A DNA stretch of 64,000 nt from the sequence record PZ338878.1; one strand, 5' to 3'. This stretch comes from a phage. The translations under genes and the position numbers were made by a program. The notes under the pieces were generated by a model. It had not been told where the DNA came from, ran no database searches, and was given only the letters and a program-made list of their open reading frames with translations. This document shows, one piece after another, positions 1,182 to 7,339 of the stretch (position 1 is its first letter; each line of letters starts with the position of its first letter).

Positions 1182-1616
1182 TTAGTTTAAAATTTCTTTT
1201 GCAATGGTAGAAGCAAGTTTTCCATCATATTGATTCGGATACTCTGCTTTAAGGTGTTTCATCATATCTGGCATTTTCTTGCCTGTCAAGGCAAATTCTT
1301 CAGCAATAGCTCGAAGATCATCTTCAGATAGCATTTCTGGTAAATATTTTTCCAGAGTGGTGATATCACGCATAGCTCGCTCACACTTGCTAAGGGAAGC
1401 ATTAACTTTCTTAAGTGAGTCTAGTTCCTCTTTAGCGTGTGCAATACCAATCTTAACAATGTTAATCATAATATCGTCTTCTGATTTGTTTAGATTTGCC
1501 TTTTGAGTACGAGCAAGGTCAAACTCACCAATAATATTAGTTAACAAAGCAAAAGCACCCTTATCGGTTGTACGTGCTAAGATACGATCTGCTTTCATTT
1601 GTGTCACAATAGACAT
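1182..1616 (-). CDS. GatB/YqeY-domain-like protein (144 aa)
   Basis: sequence resembles YqeY-type helical domain; motif-level only. Confidence 0.4.
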   Translation of the reverse strand: MSIVTQMKADRILARTTDKGAFALLTNIIGEFDLARTQKANLNKSEDDIMINIVKIGIAHAKEELDSLKKVNASLSKCERAMRDITTLEKYLPEMLSEDDLRAIAEEFALTGKKMPDMMKHLKAEYPNQYDGKLASTIAKEILN

Positions 1617-1628
1617 TCTATTCTCCTC

Positions 1629-2201
1629 TTATTTGCTAATGCTTTGAATTTTATTTACAACACGGTTTATTGCCAGTGAAGCCCTAGGCTCTGCAATACC
1701 TGTTGCATAGATATAAGGATGACCTTTTGGAGACTCCCTCATACCGAATGAACCTAATTCTAAACCATATTCATCCTCTACGTCAACCCCAATATTAGTG
1801 GGTACTAAATATGTTTTAACTCCATAATAAGTAGAGAAGAAACAGCGCATAGCGTTAGCATACTCTTCAATTGTAGCATCAGGGTAGAACTCAATCAACT
1901 CCAATTTCAAGAAAATATTAAAATGAGTATCATCTAAATTTTCTTCTGTACGGTAACATGGTGTTAGTGCCATATACGGATTACCTGCTGCAAATTCAAA
2001 ACCATCCTTCTCCATTTGCAGGAAAGATTGTTCTGCACTAGCTACATAGTATTTACCGTTAGGATGCCCTAATGGGCGATCCTCTTTATTTTCTGGTAAT
2101 GTGTACGCCAGTATATCAGCATCCACGAGATATGGAACTTCTAACATTTGTGCAAATCGACCATAGTAATCAATAGCTTGAGCTATTACTGCAACATTCA
2201 T
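1629..2201 (-). CDS. hypothetical protein (190 aa)
   Basis: ORF in operon context. Confidence 0.5.
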   Translation of the reverse strand: MNVAVIAQAIDYYGRFAQMLEVPYLVDADILAYTLPENKEDRPLGHPNGKYYVASAEQSFLQMEKDGFEFAAGNPYMALTPCYRTEENLDDTHFNIFLKLELIEFYPDATIEEYANAMRCFFSTYYGVKTYLVPTNIGVDVEDEYGLELGSFGMRESPKGHPYIYATGIAEPRASLAINRVVNKIQSISK

Positions 2202-2449
2202 GATCGACCTCCGCTGCGGAATGCACGTTTAGTAATGTTTGACATAGTGATCAAATCTTGAAGCGTCATATCAGGAAAATGCTGTTCAAGAACACCTTCA
2301 ACAGCGCCTACAATATCTGATAACTCAATAAGTTGCATCAGCTTGCAATCTTGATCAATAGCATCTTGAAGTTCATAAAGCTCTTCTTGAATCTTAGCAA
2401 CAGAACCATATTCCTCTTTACTAATCTCCTTCAAATGATACCCTGCCAC
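2198..2449 (-). CDS. hypothetical protein (83 aa)
   Basis: ORF overlapping neighbour by 4 nt (coupled). Confidence 0.45.
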   Translation of the reverse strand: MAGYHLKEISKEEYGSVAKIQEELYELQDAIDQDCKLMQLIELSDIVGAVEGVLEQHFPDMTLQDLITMSNITKRAFRSGGRS

Positions 2450-2459
2450 TTTAACCCCC

Positions 2460-5234
2460 TTAGTTTACCAGTTTATTTATGTCTGGTAAAAGATTTATTT
2501 CACCTAAAAAATCACCTTCACCTTCCTCTAGCCAACTCTCATATGCTTGTGCATGATTATAGTTACCATCAAAAGAATCTGCAACAAATTTTTCTACAGT
2601 TTTTCGAGATGTGCCAGCGCCAAATACACCAAGTTTAATACCATTGATCGGTAAAGTAGGGCTTGTTGGTACTTTCTCTGTTGCAACACGGTTGATATCT
2701 ATAATCTCTTGTACAGTTGTATTCCATTGTAAGCATTTAACACAACGGGTATGCGCTACATACAGTAAGTTTCGCTCTGCCTCTTCTAGTCCTACCCATT
2801 CACCAGTCTTTTTATCATAGTTGGAAGGAAAATCATTAGCAACAATAACCTGATCCCACTCCAAACCTTTAGACTTATGTGCTGTAGTCAGTGTGACTTT
2901 TGCTGTAGGAGAATTTCTATGCGTTCTAAGTGTATGTGCTATAGTGTTTGCCTTGCCAGAAACTACGATGTTTAACAAGCGTTTAGCATCTGGATCAGCC
3001 TCTGCACACTCAACAAATTCATTCCAGTCTGCGTAAGGTAATACAGTTTCATGTTTTACTTTCTCAATATCCCCTCTCCGAAGAGCATTAACACTATCCA
3101 CCATAGAGATAAAATCCCTGGTATCTACGTTAATAATAATTTCTTCCCCATCTGCAATACGATCCATTGCCTCCATAAGCAAGGTTAAATTCTTGCGAAA
3201 GATGATAGTGTAAGGTTTTGTATAGTCTACAACATCTGATTTGTAGCTACCTACTACAGTATCAAAGCCTTTACCAACCAAAGGATGACGCAAAGGTTCT
3301 TTATCACTTAAAATCATATTCGCAATGTTTGCCACTTTGGGGCCAAAACGGAAGCAAGCAGTTAATGGAAGCTCTGCCCCATACTTAGCTGTTTCAATCA
3401 TCATATTAGAGCTACCTCTAAATTGATAAATGCAGTTGTGGCTAAGAATTTCATTGCCAAAAAAGTTAGCAGTATCTTCTACTTCAATATCATAATAGAT
3501 ACCCTCACTATCTACAATGTCCACAATCTCTTCTGCCGTTACAGTATCACCATCTTTTACTAACACAGACATGCCTTTAAACAAACCCGCTGCCGGAATT
3601 AAATTATATTTGGGAGTGTTCACAGAGGACATGCATTCTTTTAAAGATGCAAACGGAACTATTTCAAGGATCTTTTGTGCAAAACTCAATGCTTCACGAT
3701 AAGAATTGAAATATTTACGTACACGGTAACGACCTTCCAATTTAGCAACACTTACGCTTACACCTGCTTCAATGAGTGAGGCATAGATTGGCATTTCACT
3801 TTCTGTCCACTCAAAGCTAACTTGTGTTCCTTTACAACCTTGTGCTCGCAAAGTCACTGTTAACATTTTTCTTGCATCTACTGCACAATTGATGCTGTGC
3901 CAATGTGGATAAGCAAAATGATAGTCTTTATCCTCTAAAAGTTTAAAACCATTTTGTCCGAATTGTTCAAAGATATTGTTGATCCTTTCTTGATTAATAC
4001 CGCGTGAACTTGCTTCAAATACACAAGTAGGAATGCCATATTGTAAACTGTATGCCATTTCTTTTTCCATAGCAGCTTCACGGTTTTCAACAATATCCAA
4101 CACCCACAACTTCTGTGCTTTTTCAGAACGTGTACGTTGCCCCAGTTTAGAAAAACCTTCTTTATCATCGAATTTGTTAGTGATCCCTACTCGGAAACCT
4201 AAATCTTTTCTCCACATTAGGTATACCACCATCTGATCATCTTTCAGAACATAAGGTGAAGCCCAAATACGATGGTTATGTGTCATATCTAAAGTCTTAC
4301 CTTTAGCAGTAATAATATTCCTACCTTTTGTACGTGTAGATAAAGTCTTATTTGTTACTTTTCTAAATGTAACTTTACCGTTAGAATAAGACTCTACCTT
4401 ATCACCGATTTGCAGGTCTTTCATTGTAACCTGACCATTTTCGGTATTAAGTACCGTGTTTTCTGACACACATTGGAATTCATCACCAACTACCACAATT
4501 TGTTTGGCAGATTTAGCATTCCGCAGAATAGACAAGAATGCAGGGTTAACATCCTGGAATTCATCCCCAAAAATAATGTCATAACCAAGATCAGCACCAG
4601 ACAATTCAAACAATTTTACATAGGTGTCATGCGTCATCAAAGTATCTGTGTTAGGATCAATGCGCTCTCGCCACAATTGTTTTGCATACTTAACTACTTC
4701 TGTAATTAGTTTGTGTTCGTTAATACCTTTTCTTTTAATATCTGCAAGATGTACACCAGGAAAATGTTTACGGCTGATAAAAGGATCATCCGAAAATTCA
4801 AACTTACCTACGGTTTGCTTGATCATTAAACCAATCATAGCACGAGTTAAAAGTGTTTTCCCTCGTTTATCAATAAGATTATTAATCTTAAATTTCTTTG
4901 CTATCTCACTACCTGTACCTGCAACGTTAACATACTGTCCTTCTGGTCGTGACAGTTTTGCACGTAAACGATGATCCAGGAATTGATAGCAAATGGAATG
5001 CAATGTACGGCATTCTACATTTGGTGGCATCTTACGCCGTGCTTCTTCTGCCATGCTTTTATTGAAAGCTAAGTAAAGAATGCGATCTTCTGTACTGTTA
5101 GCCAGCAAATAAAGTGTTGACGTTTTTCCTGATCCAGATTTAGCTTGGATAGTTAAAAACCGATGATCTGGAAAAGCCTCCTTAATAGCTGTTTGCTCTT
5201 CTGTTGGAGTAAAACTCAACTCTTTCTTAGCCAT
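2460..5234 (-). CDS. SF1 UvrD/PcrA-like DNA helicase interrupted by an intein
   Basis: Walker A AKSGSGKT; DEFQD; helicase motif III split as VVGDEFQ / CIYQFRGSS; start taken at MAKKELSF (RBS GAGAGG) rather than track start. Confidence 0.8.
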   Translation of the reverse strand: MAKKELSFTPTEEQTAIKEAFPDHRFLTIQAKSGSGKTSTLYLLANSTEDRILYLAFNKSMAEEARRKMPPNVECRTLHSICYQFLDHRLRAKLSRPEGQYVNVAGTGSEIAKKFKINNLIDKRGKTLLTRAMIGLMIKQTVGKFEFSDDPFISRKHFPGVHLADIKRKGINEHKLITEVVKYAKQLWRERIDPNTDTLMTHDTYVKLFELSGADLGYDIIFGDEFQDVNPAFLSILRNAKSAKQIVVVGDEFQCVSENTVLNTENGQVTMKDLQIGDKVESYSNGKVTFRKVTNKTLSTRTKGRNIITAKGKTLDMTHNHRIWASPYVLKDDQMVVYLMWRKDLGFRVGITNKFDDKEGFSKLGQRTRSEKAQKLWVLDIVENREAAMEKEMAYSLQYGIPTCVFEASSRGINQERINNIFEQFGQNGFKLLEDKDYHFAYPHWHSINCAVDARKMLTVTLRAQGCKGTQVSFEWTESEMPIYASLIEAGVSVSVAKLEGRYRVRKYFNSYREALSFAQKILEIVPFASLKECMSSVNTPKYNLIPAAGLFKGMSVLVKDGDTVTAEEIVDIVDSEGIYYDIEVEDTANFFGNEILSHNCIYQFRGSSNMMIETAKYGAELPLTACFRFGPKVANIANMILSDKEPLRHPLVGKGFDTVVGSYKSDVVDYTKPYTIIFRKNLTLLMEAMDRIADGEEIIINVDTRDFISMVDSVNALRRGDIEKVKHETVLPYADWNEFVECAEADPDAKRLLNIVVSGKANTIAHTLRTHRNSPTAKVTLTTAHKSKGLEWDQVIVANDFPSNYDKKTGEWVGLEEAERNLLYVAHTRCVKCLQWNTTVQEIIDINRVATEKVPTSPTLPINGIKLGVFGAGTSRKTVEKFVADSFDGNYNHAQAYESWLEEGEGDFLGEINLLPDINKLVN
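3435..4472 (-). mobile_element. intein (346 aa) inserted in helicase motif III
   Basis: begins Cys (CVSENTVL), block-B-like THNH, ends SHN followed by Cys (CIYQFRG); flanking exteins reconstitute VGDEFQ-IYQFRG. Confidence 0.75.
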
Positions 5235-5235
5235 T

Positions 5236-5712
5236 TCAACCTCTCTTAATTTGTTTAACAAGCATAGGAACAAAATCTCGTTTTAAAATTTGTTCAATAA
5301 TATGATCAGGTAGCTGTTGGAAATTATAATTAAATGCTACTGTCTCACCTTTAGGTGTTTCTACCCGCACATATAGCATGTTACGAAGTTTATCCACTTG
5401 TGCTGTATATTCTAAACCACGTAATTGATGCATTGCAAACATCAAATCATCAGTTTCAGTTTGGAATCTATCCCTTGTTTGCATCAAGGATAAGGCAAAA
5501 GGTAGATTTTCCCTAAGAGCCACCTTCTTAGGCACTAATGAAGGGAAATACTCCCCAATAACTTCCTGTGTAAGCTGAATACACTCTTTTTCAAGCTGGT
5601 TTTGTTCCTTGAGTTCACAAACACTTTTTTGTAAAGTGTTAACCTCTTTTTGCAAAGCTGCTAGTTGAGTATTTAACTTTCTTTTTTGATTACGACCAAA
5701 ACGTTTAGACAT
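5236..5712 (-). CDS. hypothetical protein (158 aa)
   Basis: ORF in operon. Confidence 0.5.
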   Translation of the reverse strand: MSKRFGRNQKRKLNTQLAALQKEVNTLQKSVCELKEQNQLEKECIQLTQEVIGEYFPSLVPKKVALRENLPFALSLMQTRDRFQTETDDLMFAMHQLRGLEYTAQVDKLRNMLYVRVETPKGETVAFNYNFQQLPDHIIEQILKRDFVPMLVKQIKRG

Positions 5713-5720
5713 ATCTCCCC

Positions 5721-6236
5721 CTAGTAAAACCCCTTAACAATTTGTATTAACTCGGCACAACGGTTGACCAACTTTTCATCGTACAATACACGTTGTGGCA
5801 TATGTTGTATAATATACTCCATTTGCTCATGCCATGTCCACTTTTCTTTTTTGTCTGGGATAACATCACTAGCACGAGAATTATCTTTTAATGTTTGTAT
5901 AATCCAATTGCTTGGAAAGTGCTCTCCACCTTTCTTAAATGGTTTATAGTGGCCTAGAGTGAATTGAGAATCCCCTGTTAGAGCACCCAATTTATTTAGA
6001 TGGATAATCAAACTACGAAACACGTAGTATTCATAGATGTTATCCACCGTATAGCAAGCATAATATTTCAAGATGCCCTTATCTCGCGGATACTTACCAA
6101 CATCCAGATTACACCAGTTGACATTTTCTGGATCATAGTTGTGTTCCTTAAGCCATATTTCTCTTTCATCAAAGTCTGGGTATATTACCGCCCTGCTTAC
6201 AGAGTCAACAAGTGGAGATTGAGCATCAAAAAACAT
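5721..6236 (-). CDS. hypothetical protein (171 aa)
   Basis: ORF in operon. Confidence 0.5.
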   Translation of the reverse strand: MFFDAQSPLVDSVSRAVIYPDFDEREIWLKEHNYDPENVNWCNLDVGKYPRDKGILKYYACYTVDNIYEYYVFRSLIIHLNKLGALTGDSQFTLGHYKPFKKGGEHFPSNWIIQTLKDNSRASDVIPDKKEKWTWHEQMEYIIQHMPQRVLYDEKLVNRCAELIQIVKGFY

Positions 6237-6257
6237 TATATTTTCCTTATTGGTTTA

Positions 6258-6623
6258 TTAAACGTTTTCTAAATCTTTTAAGGCATTACCCAACGTTAGA
6301 ACAATAACATCGTTTGCTGCCTCTTCCCCATTGATATTGGTGAAATTTGGTGTGACAAAAGTAACCATATAAAACTCGTCCACCTGGAAGACAGCAATAA
6401 CACCGTCCATCTTAACATCTTGACGAAAGGAAAAACCAATCATCTTCTCTTGCAAAGGCATATCCCCTTCCTTCATTACTGCCAGGGAGTTTTCAGGAAT
6501 GTTATATTTATCTGCTCCGATGTAGATGTACGTAATGTTATCTTTATCGTGATGATACAGGGTTGCTTTTTCCATATCTAAACCTGACAGATCAAATACG
6601 TTAATTTCTTGTGTAGTCTTCAT
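6258..6623 (-). CDS. hypothetical protein (121 aa)
   Basis: start moved to ATG 6623 (MKTTQEINVF) with GGGAGGA RBS. Confidence 0.5.
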   Translation of the reverse strand: MKTTQEINVFDLSGLDMEKATLYHHDKDNITYIYIGADKYNIPENSLAVMKEGDMPLQEKMIGFSFRQDVKMDGVIAVFQVDEFYMVTFVTPNFTNINGEEAANDVIVLTLGNALKDLENV

Positions 6624-6987
6624 AAATATCCTCCCAAATCCAATAATCATCTGTGTAAGTAGGATGCCTTTTATCCCACTCTGTTCTAGCCCAAGCAACC
6701 GCTGCTACCAACACATCACCATGACAAGGTTGAGGTGAGCAGAAGCAAACTAAGTCTTTCCCTTCTAATTCTAACAAATCTTCAAGAGTGATTTTACCAC
6801 AACGAATTTGTTCCCACAACCACTCTTTATATCTTTGTATAGTTGATCCTCGTGGTTCATCATCCTTTAACTTAAAAGGATTTGCAAACTTTGAGGCTTT
6901 TAACCCCATATGAGGCATAGCTCTGCCAATGTACACTGCACCTTCAGGTATTACTTTACCTAAATGGTAGAAATTTAATACTTTCAT
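6601..6987 (-). CDS. DUF4326-like protein
   Basis: VYIGR...GNPF and CFCSPQPCHGDVL motifs; ATG start at 6987, upstream start in track is TTG. Confidence 0.45.
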   Translation of the reverse strand: MKVLNFYHLGKVIPEGAVYIGRAMPHMGLKASKFANPFKLKDDEPRGSTIQRYKEWLWEQIRCGKITLEDLLELEGKDLVCFCSPQPCHGDVLVAAVAWARTEWDKRHPTYTDDYWIWEDIYEDYTRN

Positions 6988-6988
6988 A

Positions 6989-7339
6989 TTAACCCAAACA
7001 CATCTGTGCAATCAAGCCCTGTATAAATTTATTAGCTTCTTTACTGTCGTAATCAGTTTCTTCTGGATATCCATCTTCATCGTACACAACTGTACCTTCA
7101 ATATACCCTGCCTCAATTAAGGCACGGATCATATCAAATTGCCAGCATGAGTTACCAAATGGACGTTTACCATTAAAACACTCTTCTTCTCTCCATAACG
7201 TAGAGAGTAGTTGTCGGAAATATTCCCGTACAGTGACAGTACCAAGATCTGAATCCTCAAACATAACATCCAGGGCATCAGGATTGCTTTTCTCTACATA
7301 AGGAATATATTTAACACCATTAATAGTTACATCAAGCAT
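6989..7339 (-). CDS. hypothetical protein (116 aa)
   Basis: ORF in operon. Confidence 0.5.
   Translation of the reverse strand: MLDVTINGVKYIPYVEKSNPDALDVMFEDSDLGTVTVREYFRQLLSTLWREEECFNGKRPFGNSCWQFDMIRALIEAGYIEGTVVYDEDGYPEETDYDSKEANKFIQGLIAQMCLG

Follow-up and report, generated by a model that had tools for sequence, protein, structure and literature searches.

An intein with a nested homing-endonuclease-type domain in the motif III codons of a UvrD-like helicase gene of a phi92-like coliphage

The helicase gene and its insert

The window analysed here, a stretch of 64,000 nucleotides (sequence record PZ338878.1), comes from a phi92-like coliphage of the genus Justusliebigvirus. Its minus strand codes for a helicase interrupted in the middle of one of its catalytic motifs, and the sequence-only reading had proposed that the interruption is an intein. 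The features at the locus are the following:

2460..5234, minus strand: precursor coding sequence, intein-containing UvrD/Rep-like SF1 helicase, 924 aa, ~104.6 kDa (from the open reading frame and start codon)
4473..5234, minus strand: N-extein, 254 aa, ending in ...VVVGDEFQ, with Walker A, motif II DEFQD and the first half of motif III
3435..4472, minus strand: intein, 346 aa, ~39.3 kDa, from Cys1 to Asn346; a mat_peptide 'intein' in MZ501084 and MZ501100
4248..4472, minus strand: Hint N-terminal half, aa 1-75; the family profile matches solved inteins over 4-73
4470-4472, minus strand: block A, Cys1, invariant in 29 family members
4272-4283, minus strand: block B, T64-H-N-H67, with H67 invariant in 29 family members
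3435..3620, minus strand: Hint C-terminal half, aa 285-346, with blocks F/G and D328 (profile and intein_Cterm)
3435-3440, minus strand: His345-Asn346 terminus, with N346 invariant in 29 family members
2460..3434, minus strand: C-extein, 324 aa and stop, beginning CIYQFRGSS... (second half of motif III), with UvrD_C
3432-3434, minus strand: +1 Cys, first residue of the C-extein

Judged from its motifs and profile matches, the host protein is an SF1 UvrD/Rep helicase. It scores above the Pfam cut-offs for UvrD-helicase (8e-12), AAA_19, UvrD_C (9e-11) and UvrD_C_2, and matches the DNA helicase family PHROG 1967 at 1.9e-162, while the gene shares 99.4% nucleotide identity with helicase genes of phi92-like phages. 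The predicted spliced sequence displays Walker A, motif II DExQD, motif III GDxxQ-IYxFRG and UvrD_C. Several short open reading frames cover parts of the intein on the opposite strand (plus) or out of frame with the helicase; they were judged spurious, and it is the helicase frame that is under purifying selection. When the open reading frames of the window were compared with the family Hint, nested-domain and GIY-YIG homing-endonuclease profiles, neither a second intein nor an I-TevI-like gene came to light, and the window holds no tRNA genes.

Anatomy of the intein

The insert had been described as 346 residues starting with Cys, ending in SHN and followed by CIYQFRGSS; this is exact (minus strand, 3435-4472), and its removal restores VGDEFQ/CIYQFRG. 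Its two ends make up a Hint fold, one of the domains for which a profile search had been suggested: besides the matches of the family profile to solved inteins in the N-terminal half, the C-terminal half matches mini-inteins at positions ~280-340, and NCBIfam intein_Cterm scores 23.3 bits for a cut-off of 15.6. C1, T64HNH67, D328, H345-N346 and the +1 Cys are kept in all 11 copies examined, so that the terminal Asn and the +1 Cys, on which the proposal depended, withstood re-examination. Across the intein family the +1 residue at the motif III site is Cys or Ser (one Thr). Counted against the intein reading is the fact that single-sequence Pfam scores remain slightly below the gathering cut-offs; searching the PDB directly with the intein sequence produced a best hit of only E ~0.3. 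Taking these observations together with those that follow, we give a probability of about nine in ten to the reading that the insert is an intein of class 1 carrying a nested domain of homing-endonuclease type, located between VGDxxQ and (S/C)IYxFRG of a UvrD-like helicase.

As such, the intein is already known, since it is annotated in records of the BASEL phages. JohannJBalmer (Bas62, MZ501084) and PaulScherrer (Bas60, MZ501100), as well as vB_EcoM_ZYD (PQ110661), share this element with the present phage, down to the gene and the codon, the gene being 97.7-98.4% identical at the nucleotide level, with GenBank features 'intein-containing UvrD / Rep family helicase precursor' and 'intein'; apart from the GenBank intein being one codon longer, taking in the +1 Cys, there is essentially no difference. 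The BASEL paper mentions inteins in its methods only (PMC8594841), a 2024 paper says that reports of inteins in coliphages are lacking (PMC11162368), and in most other phi92-like records, that of the phi92 reference included, the product is given as 'DNA helicase' or 'hypothetical protein'. The practical worth of the intein finding lies therefore mainly in annotation; as an intein, it is a textbook case.

Occupied and empty alleles

The gene is occupied in 37 records, versus ~20 uninterrupted records at 95% identity at least, and 61 at ~75%. The empty allele of KKE7M is exactly as long as the sequence predicted after splicing, and when the empty alleles of seven Justusliebigvirus phages and of phAPEC8 are aligned the sole gap is the exact 1038 nt, as expected of an intein splitting motif III that is absent from intein-free homologues at precisely this point. 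Occupied and empty alleles are set apart by 22 fixed differences, every one of them in the tract from -27 to +51 nt around the insertion point and none elsewhere in the 1737-nt extein; they form a flank haplotype with two arms:

4473..4499, minus strand: upstream arm (-27..-1 nt), 6 of the 22 fixed differences
3384..3434, minus strand: downstream arm (+1..+51 nt), the other 16 fixed differences, with the Ser-to-Cys change at +1

At these fixed sites the outgroup phAPEC8 matches the empty allele 14 times and the occupied allele six times. Beyond this tract the two kinds of allele do not form separate groups but are intermixed, at 97-99.6% identity.

Variable inserted domains do occur in UvrD-like helicases, and the annotation of the phi92 genome noted only 'two discontinuous domains', so that one might think of a lineage-specific accessory domain, never spliced and retained in the mature helicase. 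We reject this view as scarcely credible: the relatives that lack the insert do so precisely, in alleles otherwise nearly identical, rather than keeping it as a helicase domain; it has a Hint fold with all the splicing residues, and it breaks a motif III that is otherwise contiguous. Moreover, the same cassette is found at other motifs and in methyltransferases.

A further indication of mobility comes from Klebsiella phage KP2025, where the exteins are 73-79% identical to those of the present gene and the intein 90% identical. As far as sequences can tell, the intein is a mobile element, displaying both the flank haplotype that homing would leave as a footprint and transfer between diverged genomes. 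Co-conversion need not be the whole cause of the haplotype, which could partly be due to selection on extein residues that suit splicing (Tyr to Phe at -2, Ser to Cys at +1). Roughly one in three sequenced phi92-like phages still has the empty allele, a point counted against this reading, so that homing is not sweeping or the empty sites are resistant. These phages constitute a natural, cultivable population in which both allele states coexist along with a sharply bounded flank haplotype, and in which homing could be measured directly in E. coli.

A proposed splicing and homing cycle

We may then propose the following scenario. The 924-aa precursor, as made by the ribosome, would have a divided ATPase-coupling motif III and would therefore presumably be inactive. 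Cys1 would form a thioester with Gln-1, which the +1 Cys would attack (trans-thioesterification); cyclisation of Asn346 would free the intein, and an S-to-N shift would yield a 65-kDa helicase of 578 aa (65.2 kDa) reading VGDEFQCIYQFRG, together with a free 39-kDa intein (39.3 kDa). The predicted splice-junction peptide is ...VGDEFQCIYQFR. In a mixed infection the nested domain would cut the allele that has no intein, close to the codons of motif III, and repair from the occupied allele would copy the intein with ~27 nt upstream and ~51 nt downstream.

The location of the intein within an ATPase-coupling motif, where the precursor should be inactive, also brings to mind a domesticated conditional switch, with splicing through Cys1 and the +1 Cys sensing redox conditions, temperature or DNA damage and thus timing helicase activity. 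Such roles have been proposed for inteins clustered in ATPase motifs (PMC4760082). We hold it to be quite improbable here: nothing in the sequence data requires conditional splicing, the presence/absence polymorphism among near-identical phages argues for an intein that is dispensable, and the homing footprint accounts for its persistence.

The nested domain

The sequence-only reading had noted that the insert is large enough for a homing endonuclease, with no clear LAGLIDADG motif in sight. There is indeed a nested domain of ~210 aa between the Hint halves, which sets the element apart from gp41-1 and the other mini-inteins of solved structure, split or mini and devoid of such a domain; in the profile search that had been suggested for endonuclease domains, it matched no Pfam family. 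The domain folds confidently in an AlphaFold model built from a 29-sequence alignment (an alignment of three sequences gave a pLDDT of 46 and no usable model), in two parts:

3993..4247, minus strand: nested subdomain 1 (aa 76-160, fold beta-beta-alpha-beta-alpha), a putative nuclease core and perhaps a divergent GIY-YIG
4221-4223 (Y84), 4191-4193 (R94), 4134-4136 (R113) and 4059-4061 (E138), minus strand: invariant residues of subdomain 1, with G96
3621..3992, minus strand: nested subdomain 2, aa 161-284, two helices and an alpha/beta sandwich (structure model)

Subdomain 2, which matched no family, may be a DNA-binding or target-recognition module, if we follow the model. A Foldseek comparison with viral structures was dominated by Hint matches and uninformative on the nested domain.

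Pfam, NCBIfam and PHROGs yield no LAGLIDADG, HNH or GIY-YIG match for the middle domain, and intein-less alleles coexist with occupied ones. One could accordingly imagine an intein still competent for splicing but with its endonuclease dead or absent, the middle being a decaying remnant or filler, and the whole maintained because imprecise loss would destroy an essential motif. Selection makes this unlikely. The dN/dS ratio of the intein is 0.05-0.09 among phi92-like copies, middle domain included, and 0.22 against the KP2025 copy, the diverged part of which is subdomain 2 (dS 0.64, dN 0.16); in aa 76-160 we counted no nonsynonymous change for 4-10 synonymous ones, and purifying selection on the middle domain is as strong as on the extein. 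Polar residues are invariant across 29 members that are 27-50% identical, the fold is confident, the domain also exists as a free-standing reading frame beside a helicase gene, and there has been recent transfer of the intein between phages with diverged exteins.

According to reviews and to the newest intein survey, in-frame intein endonucleases are LAGLIDADG or HNH only, and GIY-YIG homing endonucleases, as far as known, are encoded by introns or by free-standing genes and do not form in-frame parts of inteins (PMC1564403, PMC2677866, bioRxiv 10.1101/2025.01.02.630785). A LAGLIDADG enzyme, the nested domain of the class-1 inteins PI-SceI, PI-PfuI and PI-PkoII, was rejected in the present case: in agreement with the initial remark, neither the intein nor the 29 family members show the motif or a Pfam match at E up to 5, and the alpha-beta-beta-alpha-beta-beta-alpha core is missing from the AlphaFold model. 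An HNH enzyme was likewise rejected, with no Pfam match and no His among the invariant or near-invariant columns of the nested domain in the 29 members. The GIY-YIG profile PF01541 has no match in the 29 members either, yet this carries little weight, since the homing-endonuclease-type profile itself barely finds UvrC with HMMER (E 0.15-1.6).

Profile-profile comparison with hhalign gave probabilities of 15% for the homing-endonuclease type of GIY-YIG, 31% and 6% for UvrC (3 and 83 sequences) and 25% for a merged profile, with P from 5e-4 to 6e-3 and the same register every time; scores exceeded those of column-shuffled controls in three of the four runs, the fourth being borderline. The known pair, homing endonuclease versus UvrC, reaches 94-96%; enlarging the UvrC profile lowered the probability instead of raising it, and a narrow family restricted to I-TevI gave no signal. 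As for residues, Y84, G96, R113 and E138 are invariant, R94 stands at the position of the YIG Tyr, next to F/Y93, and the Asn shows no conservation. The domain differs from the GIY-YIG nucleases (I-TevI, the UvrC N-terminal domain, Slx1/HIGLE) in falling short of PF01541, in these two positions, and in an extra loop of ~10 residues ahead of helix 1.

Between them, the modelled fold and the conserved Tyr/Arg/Gly/Arg/Glu point tentatively to a nuclease that resembles GIY-YIG but is very divergent. We put only a little short of an even chance on the core being a GIY-YIG nuclease, extremely diverged and lying in frame within the intein; inteins would then have a homing endonuclease of a class not described before, as the surveys list only LAGLIDADG and HNH. 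Another reading, plausible too but with the odds moderately against it, is that of a nuclease, or a mere DNA-binding module, the fold of which is unrelated to GIY-YIG, with a beta-beta-alpha-beta-alpha topology reached by convergence. The nested domain deserves attention as abundant, strongly conserved and in no Pfam family; if truly of GIY-YIG type, it would provide a new nuclease class for inteins as well as a compact Cys1/+1-Cys intein-nuclease pair for engineering.

Relatives of the intein

A word-indexed protein search with the intein returned two relatives only, and an exhaustive search of representatives was used instead. It gave a large intein family with the nested domain, of 681 clusters formed at 50% identity; of the best 150 of these 681, most share both the nested domain and the insertion site in motif III of UvrD-like helicases. 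The intein in the UvrD-type helicase of SPO1 (gp34.33), CampHawk and Goe2, already described in the literature (PMC3868849), has the same insertion point (GDDDQ/C...THN/SMYSFRG), class-1 termini and the first nested subdomain (Y, FRVG, R, W, E) at ~30% identity; it differs in being shorter (275-285 aa), without most of the second nested subdomain, in having Ser and not Cys at +1, and in belonging to phages of Gram-positive hosts.

In the P0002 relative, C1 and the terminal HN are lost and Y/R/G/R/E are kept, in the free-standing reading frame alluded to above, directly upstream of an intein-less UvrD helicase; to judge from this arrangement, the nested domain appears to behave as an autonomous module. 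KP13-16, for its part, has a second intein, with clear LAGLIDADG motifs.

An intein within a phage helicase

The window comes from a phi92-like Escherichia myophage (Stephanstirmvirinae, genus Justusliebigvirus), and the gene that harbours the insert, 99.4% identical in nucleotides to that of vB_EcoM_AMO3598 and PD06 and 97.4% to that of phi92, codes for a UvrD/Rep-type SF1 helicase. Pfam UvrD-helicase, AAA_19, UvrD_C and UvrD_C_2 all exceed their cut-offs, while the flanks of the insert match PHROG 1967 'DNA helicase' at 1.9e-162. The region reads as follows, the last three genes being named after the annotation of sister phages.

5234 (ATG) to 2460 (stop), minus strand: helicase precursor, 924 aa
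3435-4472 (exact limits), minus strand: insert, 346 aa
2198-2449, minus strand: MazG-type pyrophosphohydrolase-like protein
1629-2201, minus strand: 'putative tRNA synthetase'
1182-1616, minus strand: 'putative aspartyl/glutamyl-tRNA synthetase' fragment

Beyond these three small genes, which follow the helicase (1182-2449, minus strand), the same annotation places an anaerobic NTP reductase. Synthetase-like fragments are uncommon in phages.

The sequence-only reading saw at this place an intein splitting motif III, and translation of 3435-4472 returns its coordinates and residues exactly: the precursor runs ...IVVVGDEFQ, then 346 residues (CVSENTVLN... to ...FFGNEILSHN), then CIYQFRGSS.... 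Removal of the insert in silico leaves a 578-aa protein in which motif III is contiguous, as had been proposed: VGDEFQCIYQFRG. Both halves of a Hint domain are detected, one at each end of the insert (Pfam Intein_splicing, 6.9e-8; Hint, 1.7e-6; Hint_2, 4e-4), together with NCBIfam intein_Nterm and intein_Cterm. Several single-sequence scores fell just below curated cut-offs, and family-profile evidence was therefore sought. A profile of the window intein and 28 relatives retrieved the solved inteins gp41-1 (E 1.6e-16) and DnaX, DnaB, RecA, VMA and CDC21 (E 1e-10 to 1e-6), the aligned stretches being limited to positions 4-73 and about 280-340 of the profile. No element of the class-1 catalytic set is missing: Cys1, block B T64-H-N-H67, D328, His345-Asn346 and, upon re-examination, the +1 Cys are all present, and C1, H67 and N346 do not vary within the family. 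The insert is an intein, its splicing being predicted from these residues.

The intein reading of 3435-4472 is thus confirmed as an observation and supported as an interpretation. As stated, this intein is already known: GenBank MZ501084 (JohannJBalmer/Bas62) and MZ501100 (PaulScherrer/Bas60) label the gene 'intein-containing UvrD / Rep family helicase precursor' and carry an 'intein' mat_peptide with these coordinates plus one codon, PQ110661 has 'intein-containing UvrD', and the BASEL paper mentions intein annotation in its methods only (PMC8594841). The phi92 record (2012) speaks of 'helicase - 2 discontinuous domains', and most other records of 'DNA helicase' or 'hypothetical protein'. We may take the window intein as a clean, well-documented case with a natural occupied/empty polymorphism; the remaining interest lies in its unclassified, possibly GIY-YIG-like, putative nested nuclease.

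Empty alleles and mobility

When the two helicase parts flanking the intein (exteins) were joined and used as a query, 81 phage records matched without a break. Identity was 95-96% for about 20 of these (Justusliebigvirus phages such as KKE7M, KMB37, AV123, JLBYU50, Paula, outra and BME3) and about 75% for the remaining 61, from Phapecoctavirus and its relatives; in 37 more records the match splits exactly at the extein junction. The KKE7M gene, at 1737 nt, has precisely the spliced length, and alignment of 11 occupied with 8 empty alleles leaves a 1038-nt block as the sole length difference at the insertion point. The insert is, on these alignments, an insertion cleanly absent at the junction of intein-free homologues; this precise absence makes a conserved, non-splicing helicase domain very unlikely.

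Occupied and empty Justusliebigvirus alleles differ at 22 fixed nucleotides, all in the stretch from -27 to +51 nt around the insertion point, with none elsewhere in the helicase gene. Beyond this stretch, occupied and empty alleles are interspersed: the window N-extein shares 99.6% identity with the empty KKE7M allele, against 97.3-99.3% with other occupied alleles. Of these 22 positions, the outgroup phAPEC8 matches the empty haplotype at 14 and the occupied one at six. The intein-linked flank, whose changes include Tyr to Phe at -2 and Ser to Cys at +1, is therefore for the most part derived, as would be expected from co-conversion out of a foreign donor. The exteins of Klebsiella phage KP2025 (PP919962, L005:739-3618) are only 73-79% identical to those of the window, with saturated synonymous sites, yet over the whole intein identity reaches 90%, and in the Hint halves and the first nested part dS is no more than 0.08-0.2. 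This contrast speaks for recent horizontal transfer. None of the 11 intein copies is disrupted. Among phi92-like copies dN/dS is 0.05-0.09 over the intein, a constraint comparable to that of the helicase (0.03-0.05), and 0.00 over residues 76-160 (no nonsynonymous versus 4-10 synonymous changes). Judged by its sequence record, the insert behaves as a mobile element; preserved nested domain, flank haplotype and transfer are together what an active homing endonuclease predicts, cleavage being putative.

The nested domain

Residues about 76-284, between the Hint halves, offer the room for an endonuclease-type domain that had been surmised. They have no Pfam, NCBIfam or PDB sequence match, and the same holds for all 29 relatives; neither LAGLIDADG nor HNH was found in any of these sequences, in keeping with the first impression of no clear LAGLIDADG motif. 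When 1.84 billion representative proteins were searched exhaustively, 681 clusters emerged at E <=1e-3, 72 of them at <=1e-30. Among the best 150, which were the ones inspected, most carry the domain in an intein at the same SF1 motif III site (GDxxQ|C...HN|[S/C]IYxFRG), fewer at motif II (VDE|C...SHN|CQDLN) or a third helicase site; such inteins also occur in some phage adenine methyltransferases. The predicted structure has two subdomains, the first holding all invariant residues.

Subdomain 1, aa 76-160: beta-beta-alpha-beta-alpha; strands 81-88, 92-98, 121-128; helices 110-116, 131-145
Invariant residues: Y84 (strand 1), R94 and G96 (strand 2), R113 (helix 1), W123 (strand 3), E138 (helix 2)
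Subdomain 2, aa 161-284: two helices and an alpha/beta sandwich

GIY-YIG nucleases place Tyr, YxG, Arg and Glu at equivalent positions (PMC1564403), a placement that subdomain 1 appears to share in its predicted fold, and the UvrC motif (V/C)Y(R/L)M..(8)..IYVG resembles VYLM..(6)..FRVG here. A 155-sequence profile of residues 76-160, compared by hhalign with GIY-YIG profiles, gave probabilities of 15% (homing-endonuclease type, P 0.0017), 31% (UvrC, 3 sequences, P 5e-4), 6% (UvrC, 83 sequences, P 6e-3) and 25% (merged, P 7.5e-4), whereas the homing-endonuclease type and UvrC, a true GIY-YIG pair, reach 94-96% when compared in this way. E138 was paired with the catalytic Glu in all four runs, and scores beat every column-shuffled control in three, the fourth, at 18.5, being a borderline case (highest shuffled score 19.3). 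Residue placement, motif likeness and these alignments therefore make a divergent GIY-YIG-like domain the preferred reading, though with odds that are only about even. GIY-YIG enzymes were not known inside inteins (Dunin-Horkawicz et al., 2006, PMC1564403; Dassa et al., 2009, PMC2677866), and a 2025 actinobacteriophage survey (bioRxiv 10.1101/2025.01.02.630785) lists LAGLIDADG and HNH as in-frame intein endonucleases, with no in-frame GIY-YIG, besides antisense or out-of-frame LAGLIDADG, Vsr-like and EndoVII-like ones. The literature searched gave no description of the nested domain's nature.

Over residues 161-284 the KP2025 intein is strongly diverged from the window's (dS 0.64, dN 0.16), and its target flanks differ too, from which we infer that subdomain 2 would recognise target DNA. 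That intein is a mosaic, near-identical to the window's in the Hint halves and residues 76-160; the diverged part may be a target-recognition module that was swapped or is co-evolving.

The module also occurs outside inteins. P0002, a 265-aa protein of a metagenomic phage contig (SRR21713527, L104:4001-4798; neighbours 4864-6300 and 6306-7112), has lost Cys1 and the terminal His-Asn, whereas its Y, FRIG, R, W and E are preserved. Its ORF is free-standing, and immediately downstream of it comes an intact UvrD-like helicase gene that has no intein. This context lends independent support to the nested module as a putative autonomous selfish nuclease. Directly downstream of that helicase gene, on the other strand, lies a canonical Pfam GIY-YIG ORF, and the gene is therefore flanked by two putative homing endonuclease genes. 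Six stand-alone proteins of 328-366 aa (P0029, P0031, P0049, P0051, P0072, P0130) comprise a near-whole intein with no extein and end in HS, HE, PT, HD, GA or HT, not HN; they may be free-standing splicing-less derivatives, or gene-call fragments.

Related inteins

UvrD is a listed intein host (PMC4760082). A related intein is annotated at the identical site in gp34.33 of Bacillus phage SPO1 (GDDDQ|C...THN|SMYSFRG), and has been described for CampHawk (PMC3868849). The orthologous helicase of Klebsiella phage KP13-16 (OP617741, L004:1240-4836; 1199 aa, recorded as 'hypothetical protein') has two inteins, one in motif III, 60% identical to the window's, and one of LAGLIDADG type in the Walker A P-loop (AKAGTGK|AQPL...LGVLIGDGYL...LRGLMDTDGS...FIVTHN|TSTLKF), the latter with Ala as its apparent first residue. 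Very large SF1 helicase-like proteins (P0004-P0009, 1800-2500 aa) each contain two or three inteins of this family, at motif II (VDE|C..SHN|CQDLN or DEAQDLNK|C..SHN|CQH), motif III (GDDKQ|C..HN|SIYEFRG) and a third site (LIxHN|C..SHN|SKQIPM). Finally, MG065639, MG065645, MG065656 and MG065689 ('Campylobacter phage A150/A145/C3/A110a') contain the coliphage helicase with its intein at 97% amino-acid identity, and Campylobacter seems the wrong host for a genome of phi92 type.
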